Assembly: GCA_024763455.1 (NCBI GenBank)
Contig: JANTFL010000001.1
Coordinates: 26,678 to 90,677, forward strand
Source of the DNA: Sediminispirochaeta sp.
Lineage (GTDB): Bacteria > Spirochaetota > Spirochaetia > B11-G9
Direction: 5' to 3'
Length of the DNA stretch: 64,000 nucleotides
Shown: positions 5,135 to 57,024 of the stretch, in pieces
Position numbering within the stretch: the stretch's first letter is position 1
Layout: each line of letters opens with the position of its first letter
Notes under the pieces: generated by a model
Told to the model about the DNA's origin: nothing
Database searches by the model: none
The model's input: only the letters and a program-made list of their open reading frames with translations
Translations under genes and position numbers: made by a program

Positions 5135-5170
5135 AACGGCCTTTCTTGTGATTGGCCGTTTTTCTTTTTT
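5135..5170 (+). terminator. candidate intrinsic terminator after the tRNA pair
   Basis: 7 bp stem AACGGCC/GGCCGTT with a 12 nt loop, followed by the T-rich run TTTCTTTTTT. Confidence 0.45.
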
Positions 5171-5180
5171 ATGATATACT
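5152..5180 (+). promoter_or_regulatory. sigma70-type promoter positioned for a leaderless transcript of the 5189 gene
   Basis: TTGGCC (5152-5157), a 17 nt spacer and TATACT (5175-5180), then 8 nt to the ATG at 5189. No Shine-Dalgarno sequence lies in between. Confidence 0.45.
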
Positions 5181-5188
5181 CTTAAATA

Positions 5189-6892
5189 ATGAACAATTCC
5201 GTATTTGACAAACTAATTTCCGGTCTCACAGTGGAAGAGCGGATGAAAATGGCGGAGAAGATGAAAATCTCTTCCGTAATAACCAGTGAACCGCTTGTTG
5301 TAGAAGACGAAACAGCAGCTTTAGATTATTCAACCTATGTTCATAATCTGTCTATTATTGAAAGGCTGATAATTTTTCTAAAATCCCTCTTTTCCTCAAA
5401 CGAGTATGAAAAAGTTCTGGGTGATCATTTAATCAGTAAACTTGGTAAGAATGTGGAACGGAAAAGCCCCGGCATCATGCATTACCATGAAAGAGAGTTT
5501 ACCCAGGGGTTTTATGTCGAAATAGTAAATTTCAGAGATTCACTTTTAGATCTGAAGGAATATATCTGTACTACCCTTGAAATAAACAAGATGGATTTTC
5601 TTGCATTCCTTGGTGGATGGTTTCTTCCGCAAATTCATCAGCGGTTTATCAGTGAAACTGATCCCTGGGCGCTCAGTAAGGAAAATGATGAGCTTCTAAA
5701 TTTCGAGATCCGCAGGGAACTGGAATTCCGTCTGGAAGATATTCTGAGCTCTGTTTCAGAAGATGAGCGGAGGATGATGTACCGTTACTCCCGTTCTCTT
5801 CATATACTCAATACGCTCTTAAAGTTCGACTTTAATCATATCCTGGATGCTTTTGGACCTTCCGGGACAAAACAGGGAAAGGTCTGCAGATTTTCAGATA
5901 TCAGGAACAGTTTGAAAGAACTGGACAATATACTGTACAGCTTCAGGTTCCCACCGGAGCAGGATCTATTCAGGGCAGTATACTATTACTACAGGATTAA
6001 AGAAAACCAGGATCCTGAGGATGTTGATAAAGTGAGAGAGTTTCTCGAAACAGCTGAACAGACCATGAAAAGCATACGGTTATTCAACAAAAAGATACCT
6101 ATGGACACTATTCTTAAAATTGTTTACAGAAACATCAGTTATAATCCCACTGAAATAAGCGGGGGAGAAGACTGGTTTGCTCTGTATAAAAAGTTTTGGT
6201 ATAAAAAATTTGAAGTCTCCATGCTTACATTTACCTTGGAGAATAAAAAGAAAGAGCTGCTGGCCGAAAACAAAGAACGACTGAAGGTAGATAAGATTCA
6301 GTACCTTACCTATTACCGAAACAGGATCTGGGGGAATGACCTTTCGATACGGTATGAAGAATCAACTGCAATTCTTTATACTTTTTTGTTAACCATGTAC
6401 ACTCGTGAGATCCTTCCAACTTTGAAACTTATTCTTGAGGATGGCAAGTTTTATAAGAAACAGAACCAGCAGGAATTCACTTCATCATACACATCAATTA
6501 TACAAACTCTGGAAAGATTAAAGTTTCTTGACTCCTCACTTGCACCGGGAGGCGAGTATGCTCTGGAGATTGAGTCAATCAAGGAGGGTGAAGAGGGTGA
6601 TCTGGAGAAGATCGACAGAATACGGAAATTGTTTCTGAGAATAGATGAAAAGGTGGAATCGATAATAATGGACTTTGTCTCATCCTTAAATCTTATGAGC
6701 AGACTCCTTAAAGGGATAACTCATGGAGATGTGGGCGGACCCTACGATACCCTTTCAAACCTCGGGTATATAGGCAAAGGTAAAAATAATGATCTACTGT
6801 CCCTTCTGATTCAGATCTGCTACACCCTGGACGGGTTCCTTGAAAATTTTACTGCCTTGTACGATGTCGAGAAGAGCAGTGCTGCAGAATAG
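5189..6892 (+). CDS. hypothetical protein, paralogue of the 52619-54367 product
   Basis: 567 aa long ORF. It shares collinear motifs with the 582 aa protein at 52619: VFDKLISGLTVEER vs VFHDLSKGLTQNER, FNKKIPMDTILKIVYRN vs FSDKIPLSDLIRYFKKN, and LDSSLAPGGE vs FDDSLSPDSE. I recognise no catalytic motif. Confidence 0.6.
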   Translation: MNNSVFDKLISGLTVEERMKMAEKMKISSVITSEPLVVEDETAALDYSTYVHNLSIIERLIIFLKSLFSSNEYEKVLGDHLISKLGKNVERKSPGIMHYHEREFTQGFYVEIVNFRDSLLDLKEYICTTLEINKMDFLAFLGGWFLPQIHQRFISETDPWALSKENDELLNFEIRRELEFRLEDILSSVSEDERRMMYRYSRSLHILNTLLKFDFNHILDAFGPSGTKQGKVCRFSDIRNSLKELDNILYSFRFPPEQDLFRAVYYYYRIKENQDPEDVDKVREFLETAEQTMKSIRLFNKKIPMDTILKIVYRNISYNPTEISGGEDWFALYKKFWYKKFEVSMLTFTLENKKKELLAENKERLKVDKIQYLTYYRNRIWGNDLSIRYEESTAILYTFLLTMYTREILPTLKLILEDGKFYKKQNQQEFTSSYTSIIQTLERLKFLDSSLAPGGEYALEIESIKEGEEGDLEKIDRIRKLFLRIDEKVESIIMDFVSSLNLMSRLLKGITHGDVGGPYDTLSNLGYIGKGKNNDLLSLLIQICYTLDGFLENFTALYDVEKSSAAE

Positions 6893-6899
6893 AGAGGAT

Positions 6900-7589
6900 A
6901 TGCTCATCTTTAGCCCCCCCATCGACGGTCCAGACATCCTGATCAGTTTAAAAAAAGCAGGGAATATGGCCTATCGGGAGAATGGGATAACTCCTGAACG
7001 GCTAAATTTCTATGCTTCAATCGGGATAGATTCTGAAAGAGTTGTCAGTTGCCGTCAGATCCATTCCCGGAATATATTTCTGGTGGATAATCATCCGGAA
7101 GAAGAGCTACAGGGGGATGGCCTGATTACAGGAAATAAAAACCTTATACTCTGCGCTACTGCTGCTGATTGTATGCCGGTTTATTTATTTGACAGAAATA
7201 GCGGAAGTTTTGGAATTGTTCATTCTGGTTGGAAGGGGACCGGGATTGCAGCCGATGCGGTAAAAATATTCACGGAAAAAATGAATTCCCATAGAGATGA
7301 TCTGGTGGCGGTCATGGGTCCTTCTGCCGGGGTATGCTGCTACGAGGTGGATGAAGAACGATACCATATTTTTCGGAGAAAATGGGGAGCTGAAAGCGTT
7401 GATAAGAGGGATGGATCCTACTATATTGATTTGCCTTCGGCGAACAGGCATATTCTGGAGAGTACAGGATGTAAAAACATTTACAGTTTTCACGAGTGTA
7501 CAATCTGTAATGACATATACGGTTCATTCCGGAGGGAGGGGCCCGGCAGTTTTACCCTGATGCTTGCAATGATCGGTTATTTTAGATAA
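6900..7589 (+). CDS. pgeF: peptidoglycan editing factor PgeF / YfiH-family (laccase-domain) protein
   Basis: It carries CRQIHS, AADCMPVYLFD, GIVHSGWKGT and ECTICN..YGSFRREG motifs. I moved the start to the ATG at 6900, the first ATG after the upstream stop; the track start at 6840 overlaps the previous gene by 53 nt. Confidence 0.8.
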   Translation: MLIFSPPIDGPDILISLKKAGNMAYRENGITPERLNFYASIGIDSERVVSCRQIHSRNIFLVDNHPEEELQGDGLITGNKNLILCATAADCMPVYLFDRNSGSFGIVHSGWKGTGIAADAVKIFTEKMNSHRDDLVAVMGPSAGVCCYEVDEERYHIFRRKWGAESVDKRDGSYYIDLPSANRHILESTGCKNIYSFHECTICNDIYGSFRREGPGSFTLMLAMIGYFR

Positions 7590-7613
7590 TCTTGGACTTC
7601 CGAGGAGAATGTA

Positions 7614-9374: not shown

Positions 9375-9389
9375 AGGCTTTGGCGGTAT

Positions 9390-9419
9390 TGACCAGCTTT
9401 ACCCGATTATGCTATAAGG
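9390..9419 (+). promoter_or_regulatory. candidate sigma70 promoter of the rplU operon
   Basis: TTGACC (9390-9395), an 18 nt spacer and TATAAG (9414-9419), 38 nt upstream of the rplU ATG. Confidence 0.35.
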
Positions 9420-9457
9420 TATTCACTTAAGAATATAGATTTGTTGAGGTTGACTTC

Positions 9458-9772: not shown

Positions 9773-9778
9773 TCTTTA

Positions 9779-10108: not shown

Positions 10109-10122
10109 ATCAAGGAGAAGTT

Positions 10123-10377
10123 ATGGCACATAAGAAAGGTGGCGGTAGTTCTAAAAACGGAAGAGATTCAAACTCGCAGAGACTCGGTATTAAAAGATAC
10201 GGCGGACAGATTGTTAAAGCCGGAGAGATCATTGTAAGACAGCGGGGAACCAAATTCCATCCTGGAGCAAACGTTGGTAAAGGTAAAGATGATACGCTCT
10301 TTGCCAAAGAAGCAGGAACTGTTGTTTTTTCAAGACGGCTTGGAAGAAAGTACGTTACTATCGAAACTTCTCTCTAA
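10123..10377 (+). CDS. rpmA: 50S ribosomal protein L27 (no N-terminal propeptide)
   Basis: 84 aa starting [30 protein letters not shown] lies 5 nt upstream, and an in-frame TGA 14 codons upstream excludes an N-terminal extension. Confidence 0.95.
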
Positions 10378-13740: not shown

Positions 13741-14095
13741 GAATGAAAATGAAATAGCTGTAGAGATAGGTAAATTTATCGATGAGCACAAAGGGACCGG
13801 AACAGTCGTTCTGGATATTTCTGAATTCAGCAGCTGGACAAAATACTTCATTATCTCAACTATTTCGAGTATGGGACACCTGAAGGGTATTGTGAAACAG
13901 CTGAAACTATACCTTCTCGAAAGAAATATCGACATATATCATCGACATAAAAATATAGCAGAAGATGGGTGGGAACTTGTCGACTGCGGAGATTATGTTA
14001 TCCATCTTATGAGTAGTGAAGTAAGAAAATTTTACAATCTGGAGAAGCTCTGGTTTAACGGGGAGATTCTGTATCAGTCATCAAAATCCTCATAA
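13715..14095 (+). CDS. rsfS: ribosome silencing factor RsfS (iojap-like)
   Basis: 126 aa. TKYFIISTISSMGHLKGIV..WELVDCGDYVIHLMSSEVRKFYNLEKLW is the RsfS signature. Confidence 0.85.
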   Translation: MMEDIAKIKNENEIAVEIGKFIDEHKGTGTVVLDISEFSSWTKYFIISTISSMGHLKGIVKQLKLYLLERNIDIYHRHKNIAEDGWELVDCGDYVIHLMSSEVRKFYNLEKLWFNGEILYQSSKSS

Positions 14096-14298
14096 TCAAG
14101 ACCATCGTAGTAGTCTATTTCATCATCATCGTCATCAATAAAATCTTCATCCTCTTCAGGAACCGCTTCATCGTTCTCTAAACTCTCATCGTCAAAGGGA
14201 TCTTCGGCGAAACTGTCGTCAAATTCTGAGAAGTTATCATCATAGTCAGTTTCGTAATCATCAAAACTGTCATCGTAAAAATCATCTTCGTCAATCAT
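14074..14298 (-). CDS. hyper-acidic aromatic-rich microprotein (74 aa), function unknown
   Basis: MIDEDDFYDDSFDDYETDYDDNF...YEDFDD. By hand count it has 41 of 74 residues D/E, 14 F/Y and no K/R/H. It has its own near-consensus promoter ending 6 nt upstream of the ATG at 14298. The track start at 14334 is a TTG inside that promoter's -35 hexamer. Confidence 0.5.
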   Translation of the reverse strand: MIDEDDFYDDSFDDYETDYDDNFSEFDDSFAEDPFDDESLENDEAVPEEDEDFIDDDDDEIDYYDGLDYEDFDD

Positions 14299-14304
14299 TA
14301 CCAC

Positions 14305-14334
14305 ATTGTATGGTAATGAATAAATTATTGTCAA
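14305..14334 (-). promoter_or_regulatory. sigma70-type promoter (leaderless geometry) of the acidic microprotein gene
   Basis: On the minus strand: TTGACA (14334-14329), an 18 nt spacer and TACAAT (14310-14305), then gtggta (6 nt) and the ATG. No SD is present. Confidence 0.5.
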
Positions 14335-14351: not shown

Positions 14352-14816
14352 TTACTTGATTCCTACATATAGTGTAAATAAACCGTAACTTCCGGTAAGT
14401 GACTTGTGCAGTATATACCTGGTGTCAGCAGGTTCGGAAAAAATATTTTTCCCAATAATAAGAGTAGGTGGAGTTATGTCGCAGCAATAGCCTTTTTTTT
14501 CCAGGAGCATCATACTTCTGCCGGAAATTTGGTTGAGGAGCTCACCCATAGCCTCTTTATGAAACCGGCCGAAGCCCTTTTCCCCTTCCGGATTCATTCC
14601 GAGATTAGCCAGCATCTTCTTTATAAAATTGGAGGCACTGGAGATGTCTGATTTAAGACTAAGAAACCCCTTTAGATCGCCGGTAATTCCGATGTTAGCG
14701 ACGACTTCTGTGCTATTACATGTATTTATGGTATCAGTAGGAGTAATTTCAAAGCCTGCTTGCTCAAACACAATTTTGGTTGCTTCGGTGAATAGTTCAA
14801 GATCCTCAATTCTCAT
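14352..14816 (-). CDS. cheX: chemotaxis phosphatase CheX
   Basis: 154 aa. MRIEDLELFTEATKIVFEQ.. and GITGDLKGFLSL fit the CheX/CheC family, and the N-terminus resembles spirochaetal CheX. Confidence 0.85.
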   Translation of the reverse strand: MRIEDLELFTEATKIVFEQAGFEITPTDTINTCNSTEVVANIGITGDLKGFLSLKSDISSASNFIKKMLANLGMNPEGEKGFGRFHKEAMGELLNQISGRSMMLLEKKGYCCDITPPTLIIGKNIFSEPADTRYILHKSLTGSYGLFTLYVGIK

Positions 14817-14824
14817 AGGTGGTA

Positions 14825-14853
14825 AGTATAGGAAAAAGCAATTATGTTGTCAA
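14825..14853 (-). promoter_or_regulatory. sigma70 promoter (leaderless geometry) of cheX
   Basis: On the minus strand: TTGACA (14853-14848), a 17 nt spacer and TATACT (14830-14825), then 8 nt (taccacct) to the ATG at 14816. No SD is present. Confidence 0.5.
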
Positions 14854-14875
14854 ACCGGAGCAAATCTCCTATGAT
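14847..14875 (+). promoter_or_regulatory. sigma70 promoter (leaderless geometry) of ispE
   Basis: TTGTCA (14847-14852), a 17 nt spacer and TATGAT (14870-14875), then 6 nt to the ATG at 14882. Its -35 overlaps the cheX -35 on the opposite strand. Confidence 0.5.
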
Positions 14876-14881
14876 ACAGTG

Positions 14882-15763
14882 ATGGCAACAATTACACTTA
14901 CTGCTCAGGCTAAGATTAATCTGCATTTGGAAATAACCGGATTAAGGGATGACGGTTTCCATACGATAAACTCCATCTTTCAATTGGTTTCTCTCGCAGA
15001 CCTGATAAAAATATCAACGAAAAAAGATACCGGGTTCTATTCTCTTAAAGGTAACTTTAATTTTCCCCGGGAGCATAATCTTATTACCAAAGCTTTAAAA
15101 CTGTTTAGAGAGGTTACCGGTCTCCATGACGGGGTTGAGATCGAGTGTATAAAGAAAATCCCCGCTGGTGCAGGGCTTGGAGGAGGTTCAAGCGACGCTG
15201 CATCAGTTTTAAAAGGTTTGAACCTGCTTTTTAATGCCGGCCTTTCAAGTAAAGAGATGGCTGAGGCGGGGAGTACCCTCGGAAGTGATATCCCGTTTTT
15301 TTTTGGCACCGGAACAGCAGTTGTTATGGGTAGAGGTGAAGAAGTAAAGGGAATCGAAACGTTGTGGGATCTTCCTGTTGTGATTATTGACACCGGTATT
15401 CATGTGTCAACGCAGGAAGCATACAGGAAATTTGACGAGTACAGTAATCATTCTCCTGCAAAGATTGGAGCGTTGGAGGATGAATACCGCAAAAAGCCCT
15501 CTTTATGGCCCTTCTATAATGATTTTTTTACCGTTCTCGATTTGGAAGATCCTGTTTACAGAAACTGCATTAACCGTTTAAAAAGCTTTGGAGCTTTATA
15601 TTCTGCTATTTCAGGAAGCGGATCTGCAGTTTTCGGGATCTTCTCCGATGGGAAGGGAGCTGCTGCGGCTGCCGGGGCTTTGGAAAAAGAATTTAAAGGG
15701 GTTCATAAAGGAAAAATGCTTGCGATTCCTCCTAAGGCGGTTTACAATTCAGACAATAACTAG
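14882..15763 (+). CDS. ispE: 4-(cytidine 5'-diphospho)-2-C-methyl-D-erythritol kinase
   Basis: AKINLHLEITGLRDDGFH and the GHMP motif IPAGAGLGGGSSDAA are present. I moved the start from the track GTG at 14819 (2 nt from the cheX start) to the ATG at 14882, which gives the usual ~10 aa before AKINL. Confidence 0.9.
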   Translation: MATITLTAQAKINLHLEITGLRDDGFHTINSIFQLVSLADLIKISTKKDTGFYSLKGNFNFPREHNLITKALKLFREVTGLHDGVEIECIKKIPAGAGLGGGSSDAASVLKGLNLLFNAGLSSKEMAEAGSTLGSDIPFFFGTGTAVVMGRGEEVKGIETLWDLPVVIIDTGIHVSTQEAYRKFDEYSNHSPAKIGALEDEYRKKPSLWPFYNDFFTVLDLEDPVYRNCINRLKSFGALYSAISGSGSAVFGIFSDGKGAAAAAGALEKEFKGVHKGKMLAIPPKAVYNSDNN

Positions 15764-15785: not shown

Positions 15786-16082
15786 ATGGAGATTACTGAC
15801 ATTAGGATTCGAAGAGTTGGAGCAGAAGGGAAACTAAAAGCGTACGTAACGGTAACATTTGATGATTGCTTCGTTGTCCACAATGTAAAGGTAATTGAAG
15901 GGAAAAACGGTGCATTTATTGCCATGCCGAGTAGAAAAACAAAGGCTGGAGATTATAAAGATGTCGCACATCCTATAAATTCCGATTTTAGAAGCTTACT
16001 GCAGGCTAAAATACTAGAGGCTTATGAAAATGAACCTGCAGAAGAGTCCGGTTCTGAGCAAGAAGCGGCTGAAACCCTATAG
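15786..16082 (+). CDS. spoVG: SpoVG family nucleic-acid-binding protein
   Basis: 98 aa starting [53 protein letters not shown] lies upstream. Confidence 0.9.
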
Positions 16083-16127
16083 ACTTTTAATAGAAAAAAA
16101 GTATAATACTCAATTATTCTGATACTG

Positions 16128-26232: not shown

Positions 26233-26278
26233 AACCCCTCTTATTGAAGTCCTTACTCCTTTCAGGTATAGTGGGCTT

Positions 26279-28081
26279 ATGAAAGTACCGAGAGAACGAA
26301 TTAGAAATTTCTGTATTATTGCGCATATAGACCACGGCAAATCGACCCTGGCAGACAGGTTTATCGAAAAAGCCATGATTATAGATAAACGTAAATTCCA
26401 GAATCAGCTTCTGGACAGTATGGATATCGAGCGGGAACGAGGTATTACTATTAAATCCCAGGCGGTAACAATTCCCTATATCGGGAAGGAGGGGGAGATG
26501 TACACTCTGAATCTTGTTGATACCCCTGGACATGTGGATTTCTCCTATGAGGTTTCAAGAGCAATTTCCTCCTGTGAAGGCGCTCTTCTTCTTATTGATG
26601 CAAGTCAAGGAGTGGAAGCACAGACCCTGGCAAATATGTATATGGCTCTTGAACACGATCTGGAAATAATCCCGGTAATTAACAAGATAGACCTGCCCAG
26701 TGCTGATATAGATTTTGTCAAGCACCAGATCGATCATGATCTTGGTCTCGATTCCGATACCGCAGTGCTTGTATCAGCAAAGACGGGGGAGGGGGTAGAT
26801 GACCTTCTTGAGGCTCTGGTTGAATATGTTCCAGCTCCCAGAGGTGATGAAAACATTCCTCTAAAGGCCCTTATCTTCGATTCTCACTACGATCCATACA
26901 GAGGGGTGATTATACACGTAAGAGTCTTCGAAGGCACCCTGAAAAGCGGTGATACCATAAAACTCTTCTTTTCAGAGAATAGCTATAAAGTTGAGGAAAC
27001 CGGTATTTTCAGAATAGATTTGGAAAAAAAGGATAGACTGACATCCGGCGAGGTAGGATACATTATTGCAGGTATCAAGACCATTTCCGACATCAGAATC
27101 GGAGATACGATAACTGTAGTGGATAACCCCTGCAGTGAACCTTTGGATGGATTCAAAGAGGTACAGCCTGTTGTTTTTTCGTCGATTTATCCCGTCGATT
27201 CCGAGGATTACGAGGAACTGCATACAGCAATAGACAGGCTGAAACTGAATGATGCTTCCTTGGTATATGAAAAGGATTCTTCAGCCGCCCTTGGCTTCGG
27301 TTTCAGGTGCGGGTTTCTCGGTCTGCTTCATCTGGAAGTTGTACAGGAGCGGTTGGAGCGGGAATTCGGCCTCTCCATAGTGTTTACTTCCCCTTCGGTT
27401 CAGTATCATCTGTTTTTGAAAAACGGGGAGGATCATTTTATAGATAACCCTCTTGAGTTCCCTGATCCGATGCAGATAGAGTATGTTGAGGAGCCTTATA
27501 TCAAAGCAACCCTTATTACCCCCTCCGAATTTGTCGGGGGTATTATAAAGCTGTGCCTTGAAAAGCGGGGGGTTCAGGAATCAATGCATTATCTCGATGA
27601 GAAACGGGTGGAGCTTGTCTATGATATGCCTCTTGCAGAAGTTATTTTTGATTTTTATGATAGACTTAAATCAATCAGTCGGGGATATGCATCCTTTGAC
27701 TACGAGATCGATGACTTCAGGAGAACAGATCTTGTCAGACTTGATATCATGGTTAACGGGCAGGTAGTGGATGCTCTCTCCCAACTTGTATTCAGGGAGA
27801 ACGCTGTTCCAAGAGCAAGAGTAGTCTGTAAGAAGCTCAGAGAAGAGATCCCCCGTCAACAATTCAAGATACCCATACAGGGTGCAATTGGAAGCACAAT
27901 CATTGCCAGGGAGACAATATCCGCTCTACGAAAGGATGTCACTGCTAAATGTTACGGTGGAGATATATCTCGGAAGAGAAAACTTCTCGAGAAACAGAAA
28001 GAGGGAAAGAAGCGGATGAAAATGGTGGGGAATGTCGAAGTACCCCAGTCAGCTTTTCTTTCTGTCCTCAAGAGTGATTGA
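26279..28081 (+). CDS. lepA: translation elongation factor 4 (LepA)
   Basis: [32 protein letters not shown] and the LepA-specific C-terminal domain are present. I moved the start to the ATG at 26279, giving ~600 aa; the track start at 26168 overlaps the regulator gene. Confidence 0.95.
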
Positions 28082-29720: not shown

Positions 29721-31223
29721 TTAGTTGGTTCTTAACACTTGCTGTGAGAAAACTGACAGGAAGTTATTCTTGAGTTTATCGGAACTCAGAAATTTCCTGT
29801 ATAACGACTCCTGTCTGAACTGATCAACAAGATATGCATAATATGCATCCAGATAGGCAAGTTCATCTGCACCAACGTTTCGTTCTTCAATGAGCTGTGC
29901 CACAATCACTGAATTGTCCAGAATCAAAGGCTCGGTTGTTTCATTTTTCTTTAATGAAAAGAGAGCTTTCAGGGCTCTTTCGTCGGTTGCAGCAGCGTTG
30001 AGTTCTTTGTCGTCATCCAAGGCTCTGATCTGCTTCATAAAATAGCTGTTACCATAGTTAATTGGAAAGTAGTCAGTCACATGAGAGGTAAGGTTCATTC
30101 CACTGCCTGCCGTATCGAATCCTGAAGTGGAAGCATTTTTTCTGAAATTTTCAGCTTTTGATACAAAGAAATCTTCGACTTTACCTTTTTCATTAGTAAG
30201 GAGATAATTTCTGATGTCAGCAATATCTTCTTCCGCAGCAAAGTCGGGATCGGTCCTTTCGTTATTTACCCGGTAAATACTGTAGCCGTAAGGTGTTTTG
30301 ATCAGGGAACTTAACTCTCCTGATTTAAGCGTGAAAACGGTATCAAGGTCTTTACTGTCAGAGAAATCCCCGGTAAGTGAGTGGTATCTGACCCAGCCCA
30401 TATCTCCGCCTTTATCAGCGTATATATCAGTTGACTGATTCTGGGCAATTTCTTCAAAGCGTGCAGGGTTTTCTTTAAGCTGTGTATAGAGAGTATCAGC
30501 TGTTTTTTTATCATCCTTAAGTGAAATGCGGCTTAGATTTACCTTTGCAAAAAGAGCTGAGTTATCCCTGCCGTAGGATATCACTTCCGAATCAGGATAT
30601 GCATCAAAGCTGAATGCCACGTATTTAAAACTCCGTTCAGGAGAAGACATTCCCTTTACAAAATCTTTTTCCTTTTCAGATGAGAGGGTACTGCTTACAT
30701 CACTTAAATACTGCTGCTGCGTAAGCTCTTCACGGTAGAGCTGCCGGGTTGCGTATTTCTCCGAATTAGGGGTGGAATTATAGATTTCAGGGCTGAATTT
30801 CCCGTTATCCATATATGGACCGTACTGGGTAAGAGCTTTGTCTATCCGGTGGTCGGAAATATACAGACCGCTCTCTTTTGCACTGTCAAGGATTGCCATA
30901 TGGAAGACTGTACTGTCAAAGGCACCCTTCCAGATCTGATACGTCTGGTACTGGTAGTTTGAACTGGTGGTATCTGTATTCTGATATTTTTGAACAAAGG
31001 AGTCCAACTGACGTGCGAAATAGCTATTTTGAGTGTATTTTATATCCTTACCGGCGTATTGACCGAAAGTCATATCCTGCCCGCCGCCTAATAGTCCTCT
31101 GAAAAAGGGCGCTCCTACAAAACTGACAACAACCAGTACAAGGATTGCAATACTGAAAACCCATAGAAACGGGTGTTTATGTTGTTTTTCTGCTACAATA
31201 TTTTCTTTGTTTTTTGAAGGCAT
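29721..31223 (-). CDS. membrane-anchored peptidyl-prolyl isomerase/chaperone (PpiD/SurA-like, parvulin domain)
   Basis: It has an N-terminal TM helix (FLWVFSIAILVLVVVSFVGAPFF), a parvulin-like segment (DKGGDMGWVRYHSL..LKSGELSSLIKTPYGYSIYRV) and long chaperone-like flanks. I moved the start to the ATG at 31223, which is preceded by GAGGA. Confidence 0.7.
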   Translation of the reverse strand: MPSKNKENIVAEKQHKHPFLWVFSIAILVLVVVSFVGAPFFRGLLGGGQDMTFGQYAGKDIKYTQNSYFARQLDSFVQKYQNTDTTSSNYQYQTYQIWKGAFDSTVFHMAILDSAKESGLYISDHRIDKALTQYGPYMDNGKFSPEIYNSTPNSEKYATRQLYREELTQQQYLSDVSSTLSSEKEKDFVKGMSSPERSFKYVAFSFDAYPDSEVISYGRDNSALFAKVNLSRISLKDDKKTADTLYTQLKENPARFEEIAQNQSTDIYADKGGDMGWVRYHSLTGDFSDSKDLDTVFTLKSGELSSLIKTPYGYSIYRVNNERTDPDFAAEEDIADIRNYLLTNEKGKVEDFFVSKAENFRKNASTSGFDTAGSGMNLTSHVTDYFPINYGNSYFMKQIRALDDDKELNAAATDERALKALFSLKKNETTEPLILDNSVIVAQLIEERNVGADELAYLDAYYAYLVDQFRQESLYRKFLSSDKLKNNFLSVFSQQVLRTN

Positions 31224-31258
31224 ATGTTCCTCATATTTCTCATAAAATGGCGTTCCAA

Positions 31259-31287
31259 ACCATACCACGTGCTTTTAGATGTGTCAA
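31259..31287 (-). promoter_or_regulatory. candidate sigma70 promoter of the PpiD-like/Maf-like operon
   Basis: On the minus strand: TTGACA (31287-31282), a 17 nt spacer and TATGGT (31264-31259). It gives a ~35 nt leader carrying GAGGA. Confidence 0.4.
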
Positions 31288-31302: not shown

Positions 31303-31331
31303 TTGTATTTTCTCACTATTGTTTGTATATT
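31303..31331 (+). promoter_or_regulatory. candidate promoter (leaderless geometry) of mcsA-mcsB-clpC
   Basis: TTGTAT (31303-31308), a 17 nt spacer and TATATT (31326-31331), then aaaaat (6 nt) to the ATG at 31338. No SD is present and the -35 is weak. Confidence 0.35.
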
Positions 31332-31337
31332 AAAAAT

Positions 31338-31853
31338 ATGTTATGCGATGTTTGCGGAAAAAGAGAAGCGGCGATACATATTCAGCAGATCATAGGAAAG
31401 AAAGTGATTGATCTGCACTTGTGCCGGCAGTGTGCCAGGGAGAAGAATGTCTCGGAAACAGAGGGGTCTGTAAACAATTCAATTATAAATTTGGTAAAGA
31501 ATCTCCTGGATGGAACTCGTTTGACACAGTTCATTGATCAAAAAACTACGTATTGCCCGACTTGTAATACAAAACTGCATGAAATCAGAGAAACCGGAAA
31601 GACGGGTTGCCCCGACTGTTACAGAGAGTTTAGAACAGTTATCCGTGAATCTCTGGGTGTGGGAAACACACCTCTTCTGCATAACGGCAACATCCCTGAA
31701 AAGCTGAAGAGCTATAAAACAATTCTGGTTGACAGAGAAAAGCTGAAAAAAGAGCTTGAAGAGGCAGTGTTTAAAGAGGATTACGAAACTGCCGTTGTAC
31801 TGCGGGATAAGCTGAAGGAACTTGAGATTGAGCTGGGAAGGGGTAATGAGTAG
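31338..31853 (+). CDS. mcsA: protein arginine kinase activator McsA-like (zinc-ribbon repeats + UVR motif)
   Basis: 171 aa from the ATG at 31338. It has CDVCGKREA..CRQCA and CPTCNT..CPDCY cysteine pairs and the UvrB/C motif AVFKEDYETAVVLRDKLKELE. It lies directly upstream of mcsB. Confidence 0.75.
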   Translation: MLCDVCGKREAAIHIQQIIGKKVIDLHLCRQCAREKNVSETEGSVNNSIINLVKNLLDGTRLTQFIDQKTTYCPTCNTKLHEIRETGKTGCPDCYREFRTVIRESLGVGNTPLLHNGNIPEKLKSYKTILVDREKLKKELEEAVFKEDYETAVVLRDKLKELEIELGRGNE

Positions 31854-40104: not shown

Positions 40105-41154
40105 CTAACCGTTTTTAGTTAAGAACTCCCGGTATTTTGCCGGGTCAGGTCTAAATCCAATTATATTTGCATCTTGTTCTTTTCCAGCCCTTTTAAGTGC
40201 AGCCGAAGCTTCTGAAAACAGAACATCTCCGTCTACAAGCCGCCCGTTTCTTGAACTGATACCGTACAGGATTGTATACCGTGTAAGAATATCAATCTTT
40301 GTTGAGGTGTTTTGATCAAAATCACGAATCAGTGCTATTCCCTTTTCAATATCAGCGTTTGGAATGATTACAGCATACAAATCAGAGGCACATCTGCATA
40401 TAAGGTCGGAATAGGTAAAGGTTTCCTGCAAAAGCCTTTCAAAAGAATTCATGGCTGAAGCAGAGGTCTCGTTTGGAATGTTTACCAAAGCCAGGACCAT
40501 ATCCTGATCGAATGATGCCGAACGTTTCAGTTCATTAGAAATCTTTGAGATAAATTCATATCTCATCCCTGATCTGTCTTTCTCAGCTTTTCGATCTTTT
40601 GAGTAGTGAGCTGCTTTAGAGATATCTTTCGAGTCCCTGCTGGATATAAGAATAATAAATGCGATAATGATAAATACCAGGGATGCTGCAATTGCATATT
40701 TTAGAAGAGATGCAAACTGATTAATCTGAAGTACCGTAAATACGGTTTTTATTTGATAAATCCTGCCTCGGTAGGGTTTGAACGTTGAAAGAGACGTATC
40801 CCTGATAGTGTCAACCACCTGCGTAAACGTCTCTGCTGTAGTGGATACCGCAGTTGCATTCCTGGCAAATACATAGAGGGATGATCCCTTATCATCAGAG
40901 ATTATCAGGGATTTTAACGAAGGGGAAGAAAGTGCCAGGTTTGAAAGTTTGACAAAGTTAGAAGTTTTTGATGAAGCACTGGTTTTGCTAAAGAGATCAT
41001 CAATAACAGTTTCCGAGATTGAATCAAACATAGTCTTTGCCTTCAAAGTATTCAGATGAAGATTAAAACCCATACTCAAAACAAGGTACAGAACGAGAAT
41101 TGTTATAAAAACAACACCGAAAACGTTAAAATATAATAATTTATTATCCTTCAT
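40105..41154 (-). CDS. membrane protein with C-terminal degenerate GGDEF-like domain (signature replaced)
   Basis: 349 aa with two TM helices flanking a periplasmic-looking segment. The C-terminal layout (VLALVNI...DLICRCASDLYAVIIPNADIEKGIALIRDF...YGISSR..LFSEASAALKRAGKE) resembles a GGDEF fold with ASDLY in place of GGDEF. TATAAT lies 6 nt upstream of the ATG. Confidence 0.4.
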   Translation of the reverse strand: MKDNKLLYFNVFGVVFITILVLYLVLSMGFNLHLNTLKAKTMFDSISETVIDDLFSKTSASSKTSNFVKLSNLALSSPSLKSLIISDDKGSSLYVFARNATAVSTTAETFTQVVDTIRDTSLSTFKPYRGRIYQIKTVFTVLQINQFASLLKYAIAASLVFIIIAFIILISSRDSKDISKAAHYSKDRKAEKDRSGMRYEFISKISNELKRSASFDQDMVLALVNIPNETSASAMNSFERLLQETFTYSDLICRCASDLYAVIIPNADIEKGIALIRDFDQNTSTKIDILTRYTILYGISSRNGRLVDGDVLFSEASAALKRAGKEQDANIIGFRPDPAKYREFLTKNG

Positions 41155-41233
41155 TCGACTATTATAAGCATGAATCTCTGATTTTAAAACCTTTTTTCTT
41201 TTCTTTTTAAGTATAAAATACTATCCTAATGAT

Positions 41234-42067
41234 ATGAAACTTTACGAAAAAAGAGACAGGTCACTACCTTCAGGCTGGTATCCTGATACAGAAGAAGGGG
41301 TGCGGAAAATTTTAATAAACTGGGAGGAGCGCTACGGGAAAAGAGAAGAGGGCTGTATCTCGGGAATAGTCCCCCATGCTGGATGGTTTTTTTCAGGGTA
41401 TATTGCTTTCTCTGTAATGAGTAACCTCTCTCCAGATGCGGATACGATTGTGATTGCAGGCGGTCATTTGCCTGGCGGAGTATCACCAATGCTCTTCAAC
41501 TATAAGGTAATGGAAACACCTATCGGTCCTTTGGAGACAGATTTAACCTTCCTTGAGGAGCTTTCAGGGCGAATTACATTTTACGAAGGTACAGAAGCAG
41601 ACAACACTGTTGAAATCCAGCTGCCTATTGTCAAGTATCTTTTCCCTGGGAGTAAGGTCGTAGCTTTAAGGGTTGGTGCAGGCAGCGATGCAATTGAACT
41701 AGGCGGGGAAATTGCAGCCGTTTCAAGAAAGCTGGGTAAAAAGACTGTTGTTGTTGGATCAACTGATCTCACCCATTACGGACCTTCATACGGATTTACC
41801 CCCCATGGGACCGGTAATTCAGCCCTCCGCTGGGTTAAAGAAGTAAATGACAAGAAAATAGTAAATGCTTTTTTATCAATGGAAGAAGAAAAAGTTCTGG
41901 AGTACGGGAACAGGAACAAGGCGGCATGCTCATCCGGCGCTGCTGCGAGTGCTATAGCATTTGCCCGTCACTTTGGCAGGTCACAAGGGGAGCTTATTTC
42001 ATACATGACCAGTAATGATGTCTATCCATCAGACTCCTTTGTCGGTTATGCCGGAGTAGTGTACTAA
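41234..42067 (+). CDS. MEMO1-family protein (AmmeMemoRadiSam system protein B-like)
   Basis: 277 aa. GWYPD, IVPHAGWFFSG, AGGHLPG, VEIQLP, STDLTHYG, AACSSG and the terminal FVGYAGVVY match the Memo family layout. Confidence 0.8.
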   Translation: MKLYEKRDRSLPSGWYPDTEEGVRKILINWEERYGKREEGCISGIVPHAGWFFSGYIAFSVMSNLSPDADTIVIAGGHLPGGVSPMLFNYKVMETPIGPLETDLTFLEELSGRITFYEGTEADNTVEIQLPIVKYLFPGSKVVALRVGAGSDAIELGGEIAAVSRKLGKKTVVVGSTDLTHYGPSYGFTPHGTGNSALRWVKEVNDKKIVNAFLSMEEEKVLEYGNRNKAACSSGAAASAIAFARHFGRSQGELISYMTSNDVYPSDSFVGYAGVVY

Positions 42068-50917: not shown

Positions 50918-50970
50918 AAATTACCCCCTTAAGTGTCGAATAATATTAGGAAAATAAATAAAATACAAGT

Positions 50971-51993
50971 ATGCATGGTATTTATCTTGATTGTCAGGAC
51001 GCACCCTACAAAACAAACCTGTTGTTCAAGTTCCTTGAAGGAATGAGCTCTGCCGGATTCCGGTATTTGTTTTTTAATCCCGGAAGATTCTTCCCCTGGT
51101 CGGAGGATTTCCATTTCTCTTCCTTCTATACTTATCCGGAAGAATTTATGCAGAAATTCGCAGAGAAGGCAGCACAAAAAGGGATCGTTTTAATCCCTGT
51201 CCTTGATGCTGGAAGCGGAAGCGGTTTTATTGTGGAAAAATTGTTTTACAGATTCATGGCGCCGGAATATCCTGAAAAGGCAGCAATAGATCCCGACACC
51301 GCAGGAACTGTGCTCTTTTTTGAAGAATTAATGGAAGACCTTTTTTCAGTTATTCCGGAAGCCGGGTATCTTCTTGTCCTCACAAGCAGGAGCCTCCCCG
51401 CAGAATCAGAGATCCGGTTTCTTTCCCGGATCATAAAAACTGCTGAAGCACTTGGTAAAAAAATTATATTCACTGAGGGGGGAGGCGGGTGTCTCAACGA
51501 TATTCCGGGGGCTGCAGGGTCTCTGTGTGAGGGGATACAAGAACCTGGCAGAAGTATTCTGAAGTTAGAGAATAGTGAGATAATTATCCGGAGGATACCT
51601 GGGGTAGATCCGTTTACACCTTTCAGTGGCTGGAAATCTCTCTGGGATAAAAGTTCAGAAAGGGAATTTGTAACAGACCGGGAACTGCTGGAATCATTCA
51701 TAAACAATAAAAAGAACTGTTGGGAACTATACAGTACATTGGAAGCTGAAATTTCACTTCTTATCTACGGTAGTGCACGGGGGTCTGTACTAAAAGCTTT
51801 TGACATATACCGGAGGCTTGAAGAATGCTATGGTAAAACTTCAGCTATTCGAAATAGGATTGAATCAGTGTTCTCATCAAGTTTTGAAGGACAATACGTT
51901 GAAAACCTGTGTCTTTCCATTATGGAACCACTTGAGAGTATTGCAAACAGAGCCAAGGAAAAAATCAGAATTCTGGAAAGAAGGAGCTTATGA
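50971..51993 (+). CDS. hypothetical protein (340 aa)
   Basis: Long ORF translationally coupled to thiN (overlapping ATGA). The N-terminal GIYLDCQD..GFRYLFFNP.. is faintly reminiscent of a TIM-barrel glycosidase start, but no catalytic motif is recognised. Confidence 0.45.
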   Translation: MHGIYLDCQDAPYKTNLLFKFLEGMSSAGFRYLFFNPGRFFPWSEDFHFSSFYTYPEEFMQKFAEKAAQKGIVLIPVLDAGSGSGFIVEKLFYRFMAPEYPEKAAIDPDTAGTVLFFEELMEDLFSVIPEAGYLLVLTSRSLPAESEIRFLSRIIKTAEALGKKIIFTEGGGGCLNDIPGAAGSLCEGIQEPGRSILKLENSEIIIRRIPGVDPFTPFSGWKSLWDKSSEREFVTDRELLESFINNKKNCWELYSTLEAEISLLIYGSARGSVLKAFDIYRRLEECYGKTSAIRNRIESVFSSSFEGQYVENLCLSIMEPLESIANRAKEKIRILERRSL

Positions 51994-52622
51994 CGGGGAT
52001 AATCTTTACAGGAGGGGAAGGTCCGGAAAAGAGATTTATTGAAAACGAGATAAAGGCAGGAGACTACATAATAGCAGCCGATTCCGGACTGGATAGAGCC
52101 CTTTTATGCGGATATTCACCGGATCTTGTCGTAGGGGATCTGGATTCTGTAAAAAACAAAACTTTTTTAGATGACATTCCTGCTGACTGTGTTAAGATAT
52201 TCCCTGAAGATAAAGATGAAACGGATACAGAAATCGCCTTGAGAATTATGAAAGAGATAAAGGTTGATCGGGTAATCCTCGCAGGCGGGGGAGGGGGACG
52301 TCTCGACCATCTTCTGGGCATTGTATCCATCTTCGACCGTTCATATTATCCTGATGTTTGGTATACCGCAATGGAGAAGATTGTACCTGTCAGCAGCAGG
52401 GATGAGTTTTACGGAATGCTGGGTAAAACGGTTTCACTGTTTCCCGCCGGTAAGGAACCCTGCAGGATAAAAAGCACCGGTTTGAAGTGGAATCTTGATA
52501 CAGTGCAATGGAGTAAAGGTGATGCAGGGATCAGTAACATTGTTGTTGAAGATCCTTTTACAATAACCATGGTAACCGGAAAAGTACTGCTGATAAGTTT
52601 TTTGAAGGAGTTTGGCGAATGA
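51990..52622 (+). CDS. thiN: thiamine diphosphokinase
   Basis: 210 aa. IIAADSGLD, PDLVVGDLDS, DKDETDTEIAL and AGGGGGRLDHLL are the TPK signatures. Confidence 0.8.
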   Translation: MTGIIFTGGEGPEKRFIENEIKAGDYIIAADSGLDRALLCGYSPDLVVGDLDSVKNKTFLDDIPADCVKIFPEDKDETDTEIALRIMKEIKVDRVILAGGGGGRLDHLLGIVSIFDRSYYPDVWYTAMEKIVPVSSRDEFYGMLGKTVSLFPAGKEPCRIKSTGLKWNLDTVQWSKGDAGISNIVVEDPFTITMVTGKVLLISFLKEFGE

Positions 52623-54367
52623 CGAAAAAAGATGTGGTATTCCACGATCTTTCAAAGGGGCTTACGCAAAATGAAAGGGATGAATTTCTTAAAAAAATAA
52701 AATACAGTCTCAGTTTAGATAATGAAGAAAGTGGGCTTCATCAGGAGGAAATGGACAAGGATGAACGGCTTGCTCTGATTAAAAAAGAGAAGAATGAAAT
52801 ATCCATGTTATGGAGGTTTTTTCTCTGGATACAGTCAAAATTTACCGGGAAGAGTGTTGAAGAGCTGCTCCTTGCTGGAAAACTCCTTCGAATAAAAAAG
52901 AAAATAAAGAAAAAGCACTCCGGGCTTACAGGGTTTGAGACCAGAAATCTTACTCCTCATTTTGCAGAAATGGTGTACGATCTCTATAAATCCACGGTAC
53001 CGGTAAGGACCCTTTTTAAAAGGATTTGGCTGGACGAAAAAGCTCTTAATACATTTTTTATGGATATAGTAGAGGAAGCGGTCGGGGAAAGAATTCTCGA
53101 TCTTGAGGATGTAGCAAGTTTTGATTCCATAATTGGTGCTTTCGGAGAAGCGGGAAAAAAAGATGATGTTAAGAGACTGATCATAGAAAAACTTGATGCT
53201 TACCTTGAATCGCTTAACAGTAATATCTTTAAACAGCTGGAAATCGATCTGCTTCCCATATACAGGCTGAGAGATCTTGTTCTATTCCCCTATGTTCAGT
53301 TTTTTCAGCAATTTGGCTATACCCTCCTTGATACTCCCTATACGGAAAATCCCCAATTTAAAAATGCCTCCGCCATACTCTGTCTGAATGATCTCGAAAA
53401 ACTGAATTTTGCTGTGTATTCTGCTACAAAACTGGAAAGAAGAGTCAATTTTAACTCCAGAATGCTGGACCGCCTTGGAGTTGTCGCGGGGAATGAACCT
53501 GATGAAAATGTTGAGCATTTTTCTTCTGATATGGAATTAGTCATTCAAAAAGCAAAATGGTTTTCTGATAAGATTCCTCTTTCTGATCTCATACGGTACT
53601 TTAAGAAGAATCCTTTTATAAAAATGATCTTTTATATTCCTGAAGTTAATCTAAGAACCTTTTACAGGACCAGCTTGACTGTAAGGATGATAACCCGGAT
53701 TGATGAACGACTTGCAGAAATACAGGAAAAGTATATCGCCCATGAAATAGAGTCGCTTTTTGCCGGAAAGCATTATGTGAAATTTCAAAACTACCGGGAA
53801 TATTCATCAATAGATTACGAGAAACTTGGAGTTTCCTCCTTCAGGAATATGGAGCCATTGTCCCTGATATATAACTTTATCGAGTGCTACTACAGAGGTA
53901 ATGTAATACAATCGATAGTCAGGGTCCTTGAAAAAGGTGTACTGGCGCAGAACAGACTTATGAGGGATAATATGCTGCAGTACGCTTCTGTTATCGAAGA
54001 TGTAGCAGAAAGGATTCGGGTTTTTGATGATTCCCTTTCCCCTGATTCTGAGGAAGGTAAGGTTTTTCACAAACTCAGATTTTCCATGACCAAGGATATT
54101 TCTCAGCAAAAGGTTTTTAGAAAAATTGTTATCCAAAAAGACCGGGAAGCAAGAAATTTATGCGAAGCAGGTATGGATGCTCTGACAGGGTTAAAAAGAG
54201 TGTTGGGTGAGATAAACCGGAGTACGAATGATGCCGTTACCGAGCAGTTAAAACAACACTATCTTATTAACAACAAACCTGTTGTGCTGCAGGATCTGCT
54301 CACTGGTTCTCTGGAGAATCTGAATAAGGTTGAACACCTCTATCATCACATGCTTACAACCGTATAG
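52619..54367 (+). CDS. hypothetical protein, paralogue of the 5189-6892 product
   Basis: 582 aa. It shows collinear motif similarity to the 567 aa protein at 5189 (see that entry) and is coupled to thiN (ATGA overlap). Confidence 0.6.
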   Translation: MTKKDVVFHDLSKGLTQNERDEFLKKIKYSLSLDNEESGLHQEEMDKDERLALIKKEKNEISMLWRFFLWIQSKFTGKSVEELLLAGKLLRIKKKIKKKHSGLTGFETRNLTPHFAEMVYDLYKSTVPVRTLFKRIWLDEKALNTFFMDIVEEAVGERILDLEDVASFDSIIGAFGEAGKKDDVKRLIIEKLDAYLESLNSNIFKQLEIDLLPIYRLRDLVLFPYVQFFQQFGYTLLDTPYTENPQFKNASAILCLNDLEKLNFAVYSATKLERRVNFNSRMLDRLGVVAGNEPDENVEHFSSDMELVIQKAKWFSDKIPLSDLIRYFKKNPFIKMIFYIPEVNLRTFYRTSLTVRMITRIDERLAEIQEKYIAHEIESLFAGKHYVKFQNYREYSSIDYEKLGVSSFRNMEPLSLIYNFIECYYRGNVIQSIVRVLEKGVLAQNRLMRDNMLQYASVIEDVAERIRVFDDSLSPDSEEGKVFHKLRFSMTKDISQQKVFRKIVIQKDREARNLCEAGMDALTGLKRVLGEINRSTNDAVTEQLKQHYLINNKPVVLQDLLTGSLENLNKVEHLYHHMLTTV

Positions 54368-55698: not shown

Positions 55699-56600
55699 AC
55701 TATCCTCTCATACAGTTGATTGAGACTCGTAATAATTGCATCTGGAACACTATCCGGGCATACATCTTCCCGAATACGGAGCGATCTCTGGTCTCCTGCA
55801 AAAAGTACGGTCTTTAATCCGGCAGAAGAGGCTGTCTTTACATCGTTGAGCATATCATTCCCAATATAAACAGTTTCATCAGCAGTTATTCCGTAGATAT
55901 TATACAGTCGATCTTTGAGTTTTTCAAACATAATCGGAGAAGGTTTTGCCTGACCGTATTCATAGGAGTAAAATGTCAGATCCTTTTTAAACCCATTTCC
56001 CGCCACGTCTTCTCCTGTCAGAGCTTTAAAAAGCAGGGGGGTATAAAACTGGGCATTGGATACAATACCAGTGACAAATCCCCGTTGTCCAAGAGCTTTT
56101 AGGGTTTCTTCCAAGCCGGGCATTGGCCATACCGGGTTGGAAAGAATTTCATAGTAAACAGCAAACGTACGAATTTCTGTCTCTGACGGCAGAGTGAGAA
56201 CCAGATTATCTTCTTTCAGTTTGGAAAAAAAATCGGTCCAGATTGAAATAATATCAACCTCAGGATGGGGGATCCCCTTTGCCCTGGAATCTGAATGACT
56301 TTTGGAAATAAGAGAGGAGAAAAGATTTCCCAAGATTTCACATGGTGTATCATAATGTATAACAATACTGCTCTTCTCTGCAGCTTTAAGATAAAGGCAA
56401 TCCCTTTCCCGTTTGTGAATCGTTCCGATATCACCGGAACCTGAAATAAAAAGTGTCCCGTATACATCAAAAATAACACTCCTGATATGATCTATTGTAT
56501 TGAAAGAGGGTGTTATCTCTGTCTTAATAGGCACCAGAGGGGATGAATTGGCTCTTATAATTTCAATCAAAGAATCCCTGAACGCCGGTATTAGTGTCAT
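55695..56600 (-). CDS. HAD-superfamily hydrolase
   Basis: HAD motifs I (VIFDVYGTLF), II (GIVSNAQ) and IV (YIGNDMLNDV) are present. I chose the ATG at 56600, supported by TTGCAA-N17-TTTAAT-N6-ATG on the minus strand. The track start at 56798 would overlap the divergent gene at 56689. Confidence 0.7.
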   Translation of the reverse strand: MTLIPAFRDSLIEIIRANSSPLVPIKTEITPSFNTIDHIRSVIFDVYGTLFISGSGDIGTIHKRERDCLYLKAAEKSSIVIHYDTPCEILGNLFSSLISKSHSDSRAKGIPHPEVDIISIWTDFFSKLKEDNLVLTLPSETEIRTFAVYYEILSNPVWPMPGLEETLKALGQRGFVTGIVSNAQFYTPLLFKALTGEDVAGNGFKKDLTFYSYEYGQAKPSPIMFEKLKDRLYNIYGITADETVYIGNDMLNDVKTASSAGLKTVLFAGDQRSLRIREDVCPDSVPDAIITSLNQLYERIV

Positions 56601-56606
56601 ACACTG

Positions 56607-56635
56607 ATTAAAGAACAAAAAAGGATAACTTGCAA
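56607..56635 (-). promoter_or_regulatory. candidate promoter (leaderless geometry) of the HAD-SPFH-HIT operon
   Basis: On the minus strand: TTGCAA (56635-56630), a 17 nt spacer and TTTAAT (56612-56607), then 6 nt to the ATG at 56600. Confidence 0.35.
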
Positions 56636-56652
56636 TATAAAAAATACCTGTA

Positions 56653-56681
56653 CTGACTTTTTCAATCCAAACCGATACAAT
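56653..56681 (+). promoter_or_regulatory. candidate promoter (leaderless geometry) of the 56689 membrane-protein/aroH/map operon
   Basis: CTGACT (56653-56658), a 17 nt spacer and TACAAT (56676-56681), then 7 nt to the ATG at 56689. No SD is present. Confidence 0.4.
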
Positions 56682-56688
56682 AGGCAGA

Positions 56689-57024
56689 ATGAGAAAGGAA
56701 AAAAATATCATTTGGCTTCCGGATATAATTAATAAAATCACCCTTTTTACGTTTATGCTGTCGATACTGATAGTATTTACCTTTCTTGCCGGTAACAAAC
56801 AAGGGTTTATTGATTCTACTCAAAACCTGCTGCTCAGGCTGTTCAGAACAACAGCCCTGGTTTTCATCGTTACCGGAGTATATAACATTTTAATCAGTCT
56901 TGCAGTTCTCATAAGAAAACGGCGGTTATACTCTTCCCGGTTAATAATGACAATATTGGCGGAGGGCTTGATGATCTCTTTTTTTCTGGGAACGAGCGGT
57001 ATACTTGCAATCATTAAGGGATAG
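56689..57024 (+). CDS. small integral membrane protein (3 predicted TM helices), unknown function
   Basis: 111 aa with three hydrophobic stretches. The start is supported by the promoter geometry above, and the gene abuts aroH. Confidence 0.45.
   Translation: MRKEKNIIWLPDIINKITLFTFMLSILIVFTFLAGNKQGFIDSTQNLLLRLFRTTALVFIVTGVYNILISLAVLIRKRRLYSSRLIMTILAEGLMISFFLGTSGILAIIKG

Follow-up and report, generated by a model that had tools for sequence, protein, structure and literature searches.

Our results here suggest that, in a stretch of spirochaete DNA, many first genes of operons carry their promoter so close to the start codon that the message would have no leader. The stretch (64,000 nucleotides (nt) of Sediminispirochaeta sp., assembly GCA_024763455.1, contig JANTFL010000001.1, positions 26,678 to 90,677) is called the window below. 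An original prediction, made from the letters of this DNA, had proposed nine such genes, at which a -10-like hexamer ends 6-8 nt before the ATG and no Shine-Dalgarno (SD) sequence intervenes. It is well supported by sequence comparison that 9-11 of the 19 operon-leading genes of the window (Wilson 95% intervals 27-68% and 36-77%) are organised in this leaderless-type way, and we consider it likely that housekeeping promoters start transcription there on the A of the ATG, or 1-3 nt before it, leaving neither leader nor SD.

The window has a GC content of 42% and carries flagellar, CheX, DUF5312 and TP_0929-type genes. It is 87% identical in DNA to a Guaymas Basin metagenome-assembled genome (MAG) labelled "Spirochaetes bacterium B11_G9", and its McsB falls in the same 90%-identity cluster as a protein of "Spirochaetes bacterium" DRP59. 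The closest named homologues of its IspE, from Treponema and Spirochaetales MAGs, are only ~40% identical. The window therefore belongs to an uncultured, fairly deep spirochaete lineage.

Sixty-one protein genes were re-annotated in the window. A gene was taken as an operon head when the non-coding DNA before it measured 40 nt or more, or when its neighbour was divergent, which gave a first list of 21 heads. Two of them were dropped: 16948 (pth), whose coding sequence starts directly after the rplY stop, and 60074, immediately 5′ of which an open reading frame (ORF) of 65 amino acids is called. The curated list thus holds 19 heads, set beside 39 internal genes. SD cores (GGAG, GAGG, AGGA, AGGT, GGTG) were scanned 3-13 nt upstream of starts. 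A complete promoter was scored when a -35 element with at least 4/6 matches to TTGACA lay 16-18 nt 5′ of a -10 hexamer whose second base is A and whose sixth is T. The comparison set (L001-L011) consists of syntenic loci of related genomes, with orthologous proteins from ~50% to 89% identical. A scan of genome contigs with the DUF5312 protein returned a single relative, L001, overlapping the window, a first metagenome scan with IspE gave no matches, and two short out-of-sample contigs, L012 and L013, added no operon heads.

All nine motif strings of the original prediction were found at their positions, and no SD core precedes any of the nine starts. Some details had to be revised. The hexamer conforms to TANNNT at eight sites, but TTTAAT at 56600 lacks A at position 2; and among the -35 elements, those at 5189, 14298, 14816, 14882, 41154 and 56689 are TTGACA-like (at least 4/6) but TTGTAT at 31338 matches at 3/6 only. 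On the plus strand, these heads are the DUF5312 gene (5152..5191, TTGGCC-17-(TGa)TATACT-8-ATG, an extended -10), ispE, encoding a GHMP kinase (14847..14884, TTGTCA-17-TATGAT-6-ATG), the McsA-like gene of an mcsA-mcsB-clpC operon (31303..31340, TTGTAT-17-TATATT-6-ATG), a gene for a 340-amino-acid protein of unassigned function (50959..50973, TAAAAT-6-ATG with a weak -35; also 340 amino acids in relatives) and a gene for a 111-amino-acid membrane-type protein located 5′ of the chorismate mutase and MetAP genes (56653..56691, CTGACT-17-TACAAT-7-ATG). On the minus strand are the gene for a very acidic 74-amino-acid protein (14296..14334, TTGACA-18-TACAAT-6-ATG) and the CheX gene (14814..14853, TTGACA-17-TATACT-8-ATG), both with 11/12 consensus positions, a gene for a 349-amino-acid protein of unassigned function (41152..41188, TTTAAA-16-TATAAT-6-ATG) and a HAD hydrolase gene (56598..56635, TTGCAA-17-TTTAAT-6-ATG), the weakest site, again without SD. 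The cheX -35 overlaps that of the divergent ispE.

Our survey brought out heads that the original prediction had missed. These are lepA (start 26279; 26244..26281, plus strand, TTGAAG-17-TATAGT-6-ATG; 600 amino acids, the same length as in relatives), a Memo-family gene (start 41234; 41219..41236, plus strand, TACTAT-9-ATG, with neither SD nor good -35) and possibly a Polysacc_deac_2 gene (start 3027; 2990..3029, plus strand, TTGACC-17-TATTTT-8-GTG). The last one is of low confidence because its start is GTG and no diverged relative is available for comparison. The start codon is ATG at the nine sites, at lepA and at Memo. The box 6-8 nt from the start that characterises leaderless genes is found at eight of the nine sites and at lepA, the Memo spacing being 9.

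These arrangements are concentrated at operon heads. TANNNT ends 6-9 nt before the start at 11/19 curated heads vs 2/39 internal genes. For the first list and spacings 6-8 the count is 12/21 (Fisher p = 1.3e-5 relative to the internal genes), compared with a mean of 2.3 and a maximum of 9 in dinucleotide shuffles; none of 5000 shuffles reached 12 heads, and the shuffle mean was 3.1 for spacings 6-9. This window-level modelling bears on the AT-rich null model that the original prediction had itself named as its possible undoing, and the pattern withstood it. The spacing profile of the 21 heads is sharp, the box lying exactly 6 nt from the start in nine, 7 nt in one and 8 nt in three; other offsets between 0 and 38 nt mostly show 0-2 heads, with a maximum of 3. 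Complete -35/-10 sites with a spacing of 6-9 nt to the start codon are present at 8/19 curated heads (5189, 14298, 14816, 14882, 26279, 41154, 56689 and 3027), 0.20 being expected from 3000 shuffles with a maximum of 3; no such complete site is found at 31338, 41234, 50971 and 56600. Among the strongest intergenic promoter-like sites before protein genes, 4/6 end 6-8 nt from the ATG.

Box and SD are mutually exclusive in the window: no boxed head has an SD and no SD-led head has a box. Most of the remaining heads, and many internal genes, display a GGAG-type SD. The contrast drawn earlier with flgF, flgG, argS, spoVG, rplY and the PpiD-like gene stands, all of them having GGAG-type SDs; for the DUF1015 gene, also cited, the motif scan flagged no core and AAGGGGG is seen by eye. 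The tRNA promoters likewise provide the reference announced by the original prediction, with TTGACA-17-TACATT upstream of tRNA-Gln/Glu (4938..4966, plus strand) and TAGACT-16-TATAAT and TTGACA-17-TATGTT further on (16080-16107; 58197-58225). The PpiD-like gene, which shares its spacer with 31338, serves as a leadered control (31221..31287, minus strand): TTGACA-17-TATGGT is followed by a 35-nt gap to the ATG with a GAGGA SD, a leader of ~29 nt is predicted, and this architecture is kept in L009, L010 and L011. Both tRNA and PpiD-like promoters have the same sigma-70-type form as the head promoters. Rfam detected five tRNAs only in the window, and no riboswitch or leader RNA that would account for any of the upstream regions.

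The geometry is conserved among relatives. For eight of the nine sites, orthologous loci retain both hexamers and spacing, with drift in the bases between them, and this holds in genomes with orthologous proteins only ~50-70% identical. Conservation of hexamers in orthologous spacers with variable flanking bases is what characterises sigma-70-type promoters. In the 65-bp cheX-ispE spacer, the alignment of five genomes leaves invariant only the two start codons and three blocks: AGTATAG, which is the -10 of cheX read on the opposite strand, TGTCAAA, in which the two -35s overlap, and TAT..T, the -10 of ispE. Variable bases lie between either -10 and the ATG that it serves. The spacing is 8, 8, 8, 9 and 6 for cheX across the five genomes, and for ispE it is 6 in the window and then 6, 6, 7 and 7 in L002, L003, L004 and L005, with no SD in any of them. 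At lepA, a spacing of 6 is found in the window, L009, L010 and L011, the hexamers being kept and the intervening bases varying. The 41154 gene carries TATAAT in the window or TATACT in L009 and L011 at exactly 6 nt, and the Memo spacing of 9 recurs in L009 (TTCTAT) and L011 (TACTAT). Between these two divergent genes, at ~41176-41215, lies an A-rich block, agaaaagaaaaaaggtttt (minus strand), also kept in L009 and L011; it may act as an UP-element common to both genes or bind a regulator. CTGACT-17-TACAAT-7 is kept upstream of 56689 in the window, L006 and L008, and the HAD site is TTGAAA-17-TTTAAT-6 in L006 and L008. Upstream of 50971, these two loci match the window at 98-100% over the full 53-nt spacer, with flanking genes 74-86% identical in DNA. 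Two -10 boxes and one SD would not call for as much constraint as is seen in this spacer (50918-50970), which separates the 340-amino-acid gene from the divergent DUF1015 gene.

For the DUF5312 gene, TGnTATACT/TATAAT is kept in L001, L002, L004 and L005 with spacings of 8, 8, 9 and 9, and the -35 is not kept. Its expected position overlaps a terminator-like hairpin (acggcc...ggccgt and a T run, 5135-5170) directly 3′ of tRNA-Glu, itself kept in L001, L004 and L005. We rejected TTGGCC (5152) as a functional -35, as it lies in the terminator stem and is unconserved, while the TG of the extended -10 is conserved. The window encodes two DUF5312 paralogues: the one at 5189-6892 is a leaderless-type operon head, the other (52619-54367) is internal and SD-led.

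Two genes alternate between leadered and leaderless-type forms. The 74-amino-acid gene has the arrangement TTGACA-18-TACAAT-6-ATG in the window and L002, but in L003, L004 and L005 TTGACA-18-TACATT is followed by a leader of 24-27 nt with an AGGAG/GGGAG SD. Its product (14074-14298, minus strand), about half of which is D/E, has no Pfam match, and the gene lies between rsfS and cheX in five of five genomes. The McsA-like gene has TATATT-6-ATG in the window and TATATT-7-ATG in L009, but in L010 and L011 TTGTAt-17-TATATT is followed by 35-37 nt with a GAGGTGG/AGGTGG SD. In the relatives the same hexamers precede SD leaders of 24-37 nt, and this identifies them as the promoters of both genes; since in the window this promoter lies directly against the ATG, the +1 expected there would be the A of the ATG.

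To a wider extent, the LepA metagenome scan yielded 80 loci with 74 distinct upstream regions. A full promoter-like site ends 5-8 nt from the start in 19/74 regions, and among the full promoter-like sites within 60 nt upstream, 19/24 have this 5-8 nt spacing. In a simpler motif count over 75 loci, an SD is present instead in 26, and TANNNT box and SD occur together in only three. The lepA/MptE/PpiD (TP_0929-type) neighbourhood is kept at many loci of both types. From these counts, the leaderless-type arrangement is widespread among relatives and toggles with SD-led initiation.

How would such promoters work? Within a sigma-70-type promoter, the -10 hexamer spans positions -12 to -7, six bases before +1, so that a spacing of 6 nt would put +1 on the A of the ATG. 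The promoters of these heads would thus be sited for the RNA to begin on the A of the start codon or 1-3 nt before it: with a spacing of 6, the first transcribed base would be the A itself, and with 7-9, transcription would start on this A or leave a leader of 1-3 nt. The resulting mRNA would have a 5′-terminal AUG and no SD, and would presumably be translated by direct binding of the ribosome to this AUG, which is described as the established leaderless route in the reviews that PMC5314773 and PMC5397173 cite. We infer these transcription start sites (TSSs) and this mode of translation from the motifs, spacing statistics, SD exclusivity and conservation observed. The proposal that transcription starts at or near the A of the ATG at many heads finds support in the 6-nt spacing peak, in the exclusivity of box and SD, in the use of ATG at all nine sites, in conservation and in the leadered orthologues. 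The geometry also agrees with the signature published for leaderless genes (PMC3160421, PMC6028130), and the intergenic spacers of divergent genes, at only 53-88 nt, have no space for a further intergenic promoter.

Several points weigh against this reading. DUF5312, CheX and Memo have spacings of 8-9 nt, from which leaders of 1-3 nt and not zero are predicted: 5189 and 14816 probably have such leaders rather than none, likely of 1-2 nt for DUF5312, and 2-3 nt are likely for Memo. The -35 elements of 31338, 50971 and 41234 are weak, and the -10 of 56600 is without the key A at position 2. The spacer of 50971 is evidently under constraint, judging from the alignment, but its conservation singles out no -10. 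Finally, all of this comes from 19 operon heads in a single 64-kb window, and our own curation of start codons could add bias, though the starts were checked against homologues.

Alternatively, the mRNAs could be leadered and SD-independent, transcribed from promoters inside the neighbouring gene, the hexamers then being unstructured, S1-binding, translation-enhancing or regulator sites. Initiation regions that are A/U-rich and lack an SD are indeed known from other phyla (PMC5397173; group B in PMC6028130), promoter-like sites are found inside genes, and the weak -35 at several sites as well as TTTAAT, a poor -10 at 56600, would be easier to accommodate. We nevertheless find this alternative unlikely. 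An A/U-rich enhancer needs neither a TTGACA-like hexamer 16-18 nt upstream nor a TAnnnT peak at 6 nt, the same hexamer pairs are the obvious promoters of the SD-leadered orthologues, and the conserved blocks are the two hexamers and not the ATG-adjacent bases.

If start codons were mis-assigned, the true starts being SD-led and located downstream or upstream, the distance between promoter and ATG would be irrelevant. Gene callers did start ispE at GTG 14819, moved DUF5312 of L002 to a downstream ATG that has GGAGG, and gave the 50971 gene a 281-amino-acid form, and the ORF continues upstream of the ATG at 14298, 14882, 31338 and 56600. However, the callers are inconsistent between genomes, and orthologous N-termini align from the ATGs retained here. 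All four ambiguous starts were checked against homologues. Most IspE homologues begin at the aligned M, and the 314-amino-acid form of IspE is a gene-caller extension whose extra "residues" are translated promoter hexamers. The N-terminus MIDEDDFY of the 74-amino-acid protein is conserved in five genomes, as is ML/ICDVCGK in four for the McsA-like protein (MLCDVCGK in the window; it matches the zinc-finger start of Bacillus McsA). For HAD, the ATG is kept in L006 and L008. In the same way, the N-terminal NSVFD of DUF5312 (5189) is conserved with synonymous changes, and the alignment to the Pfam DUF5312 model begins at residue 4. Sequences upstream of the ATGs are conserved as promoter hexamers and not as codons, while those downstream show synonymous-type variation. 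The 111-amino-acid ORF (56689) differs from that of L008 by 10/5/35 changes at codon positions 1/2/3, a bias that marks it as a real coding gene under purifying selection. With this evidence, mis-assignment is a very unlikely explanation.

That chance alone gave the pattern, through AT-rich intergenic DNA and a free choice among ATGs yielding TANNNT near starts, is next to impossible in our estimation and refuted at window level by the shuffle and positional controls: intergenic DNA is indeed AT-rich, ~2-3 of ~20 heads are expected to have TANNNT at three or four allowed offsets and four starts were ambiguous before checking, but 12 heads were observed against 2.3-3.1, a number reached in 0/5000 shuffles, full promoters occur at 8 heads against 0.20, the peak is at a single offset, the starts are verified by homologue N-termini and the arrangement is conserved across genomes.

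The behaviour of the gene callers has a practical consequence. Called ORFs run through promoter DNA at the ispE, cheX and HAD heads (14819-14881 and 56601-56798 in the window; ~9933-9957 in L004/L005), and starts are called too far downstream for DUF5312 in L002 (206-259), the 50971 gene (50971-51147) and the 41154 orthologue of L011 (19391-19405), which in fact begins at an ATG upstream of that chosen by the caller. In L006 and L008, the conserved 111-amino-acid gene was left uncalled. Such repeated errors at leaderless-type heads imply that start codons in MAGs of this lineage will be systematically wrong unless the gene-start model admits leaderless genes.

Our analysis of the window and its relatives leads us to a broader and more tentative suggestion, about which we are slightly more doubtful than confident: the lineage, an uncultured spirochaete family of Guaymas-type marine sediment, may be leaderless-dominant, with about half of its operons without leader, as in group C of GeneMarkS-2 (see below), and with leaders lost on short evolutionary timescales. 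The SD-leadered relatives of the McsA-like and 74-amino-acid genes have marker identities of 61-63% (McsB) and 57-61% (IspE).

Some other features of the window are worth recording. In pth (16870-16950), the first canonical start, TTG 16948, lies downstream of the codons for the conserved N-terminal Pth motif GLGNPG..Y..TRHN.GF, and only CTG TTT CTA TTT ATC separates these codons from the rplY stop (TAA, 16870-16872). Either a non-canonical start or translational coupling to the rplY stop therefore seems to be in use; L002 (~11959) is the same as the window in this respect, and L004 and L005 have 191-amino-acid forms. The 65-amino-acid ORF (59867-60064) overlaps the stop of the preceding gene and is called in L012; should this ORF be real, the 60074 gene, which encodes a 1383-amino-acid OmpA/FlgD_ig protein and has TAAATT-6-ATG, is no operon head. 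Two near-consensus promoter-like sites are also present within genes, TTGACA-16-AATAAT antisense in ispE (15383-15410, minus strand) and TTGAAA-17-TATAAT in the HAD gene (55899-55927, minus strand), 200 nt upstream of the next gene start, 55698.

Leaderless initiation is already known, both in kind and in this phylum, and no new mechanism is involved. The original suggestion that it might be undescribed for the lineage fails at the phylum level, leaderless transcripts having been mapped in Leptospira (PMC5243855) and Borrelia (PMC5314773). Differential RNA sequencing of Leptospira interrogans gave ~440 genes with an untranslated region (UTR) <10 nt (PMC5243855), and 5′-end RNA sequencing of Borrelia burgdorferi 85 such mRNAs, ~19% of 5′ UTRs (PMC5314773). 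In both, as predicted here, many primary TSSs lie 0-10 nt from the start codon; theirs are experimental TSS maps, whereas ours is a case read from sequence only. No sigma-70 motif was derivable in Leptospira, in contrast to the clean consensus in the lineage of the window. The leaderless-type share of heads, measured here in one window, is higher at 47-58% than the 15-19% of Leptospira/Borrelia (binomial p = 0.005 to 2e-5).

Two sequence-based surveys offer the closest parallels. Zheng et al. 2011 defined leaderless genes by TANNNT ~12 bp before the start codon, measured from the first T, with dinucleotide-shuffle validation, and found such TA-led genes in 6/18 Spirochaetes genomes, amounting to 1.8-6.9% of genes; they also reported orthologues switching between SD-led and leaderless initiation (PMC3160421). 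Our criterion, validation and orthologue switching are alike, but ~15-18% of genes are concerned here (9-11/61, in one window and not a whole genome), nearer to Actinobacteria. Group C of GeneMarkS-2 comprises 1028/4769 bacterial genomes, whose first-in-operon starts have a Pribnow box at 6-8 nt, with 25-50% of operons leaderless; it is dominated by Actinobacteria and Deinococcus-Thermus, e.g. Mycobacterium tuberculosis and Deinococcus (PMC6028130). The window resembles it by its Pribnow-type box 6-8 nt from first-in-operon starts, by the need of two start models and by SDs elsewhere, and the share of operons predicted there is comparable with 9-11/19 here. The share of heads is also close to that of mycobacteria and Deinococcus. 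Unlike the bare TAnnnT of high-GC genomes, the window promoters are full TTGACA-17-TATAAT-like elements at 42% GC.

What is modestly notable is thus the high share of operon heads concerned and the switching of orthologues between leadered and leaderless forms. If the lineage is indeed leaderless-dominant, it would stand far above cultured spirochaetes, for which 2-7% of genes have been predicted, or 15-19% of 5′ ends mapped, as leaderless. Our results would add a deep-branching uncultured spirochaete clade to the bacteria relying heavily on leaderless initiation, and the McsA-like and 74-amino-acid genes, natural leadered/leaderless orthologue pairs with one promoter, should be useful for studies of leader gain and loss.

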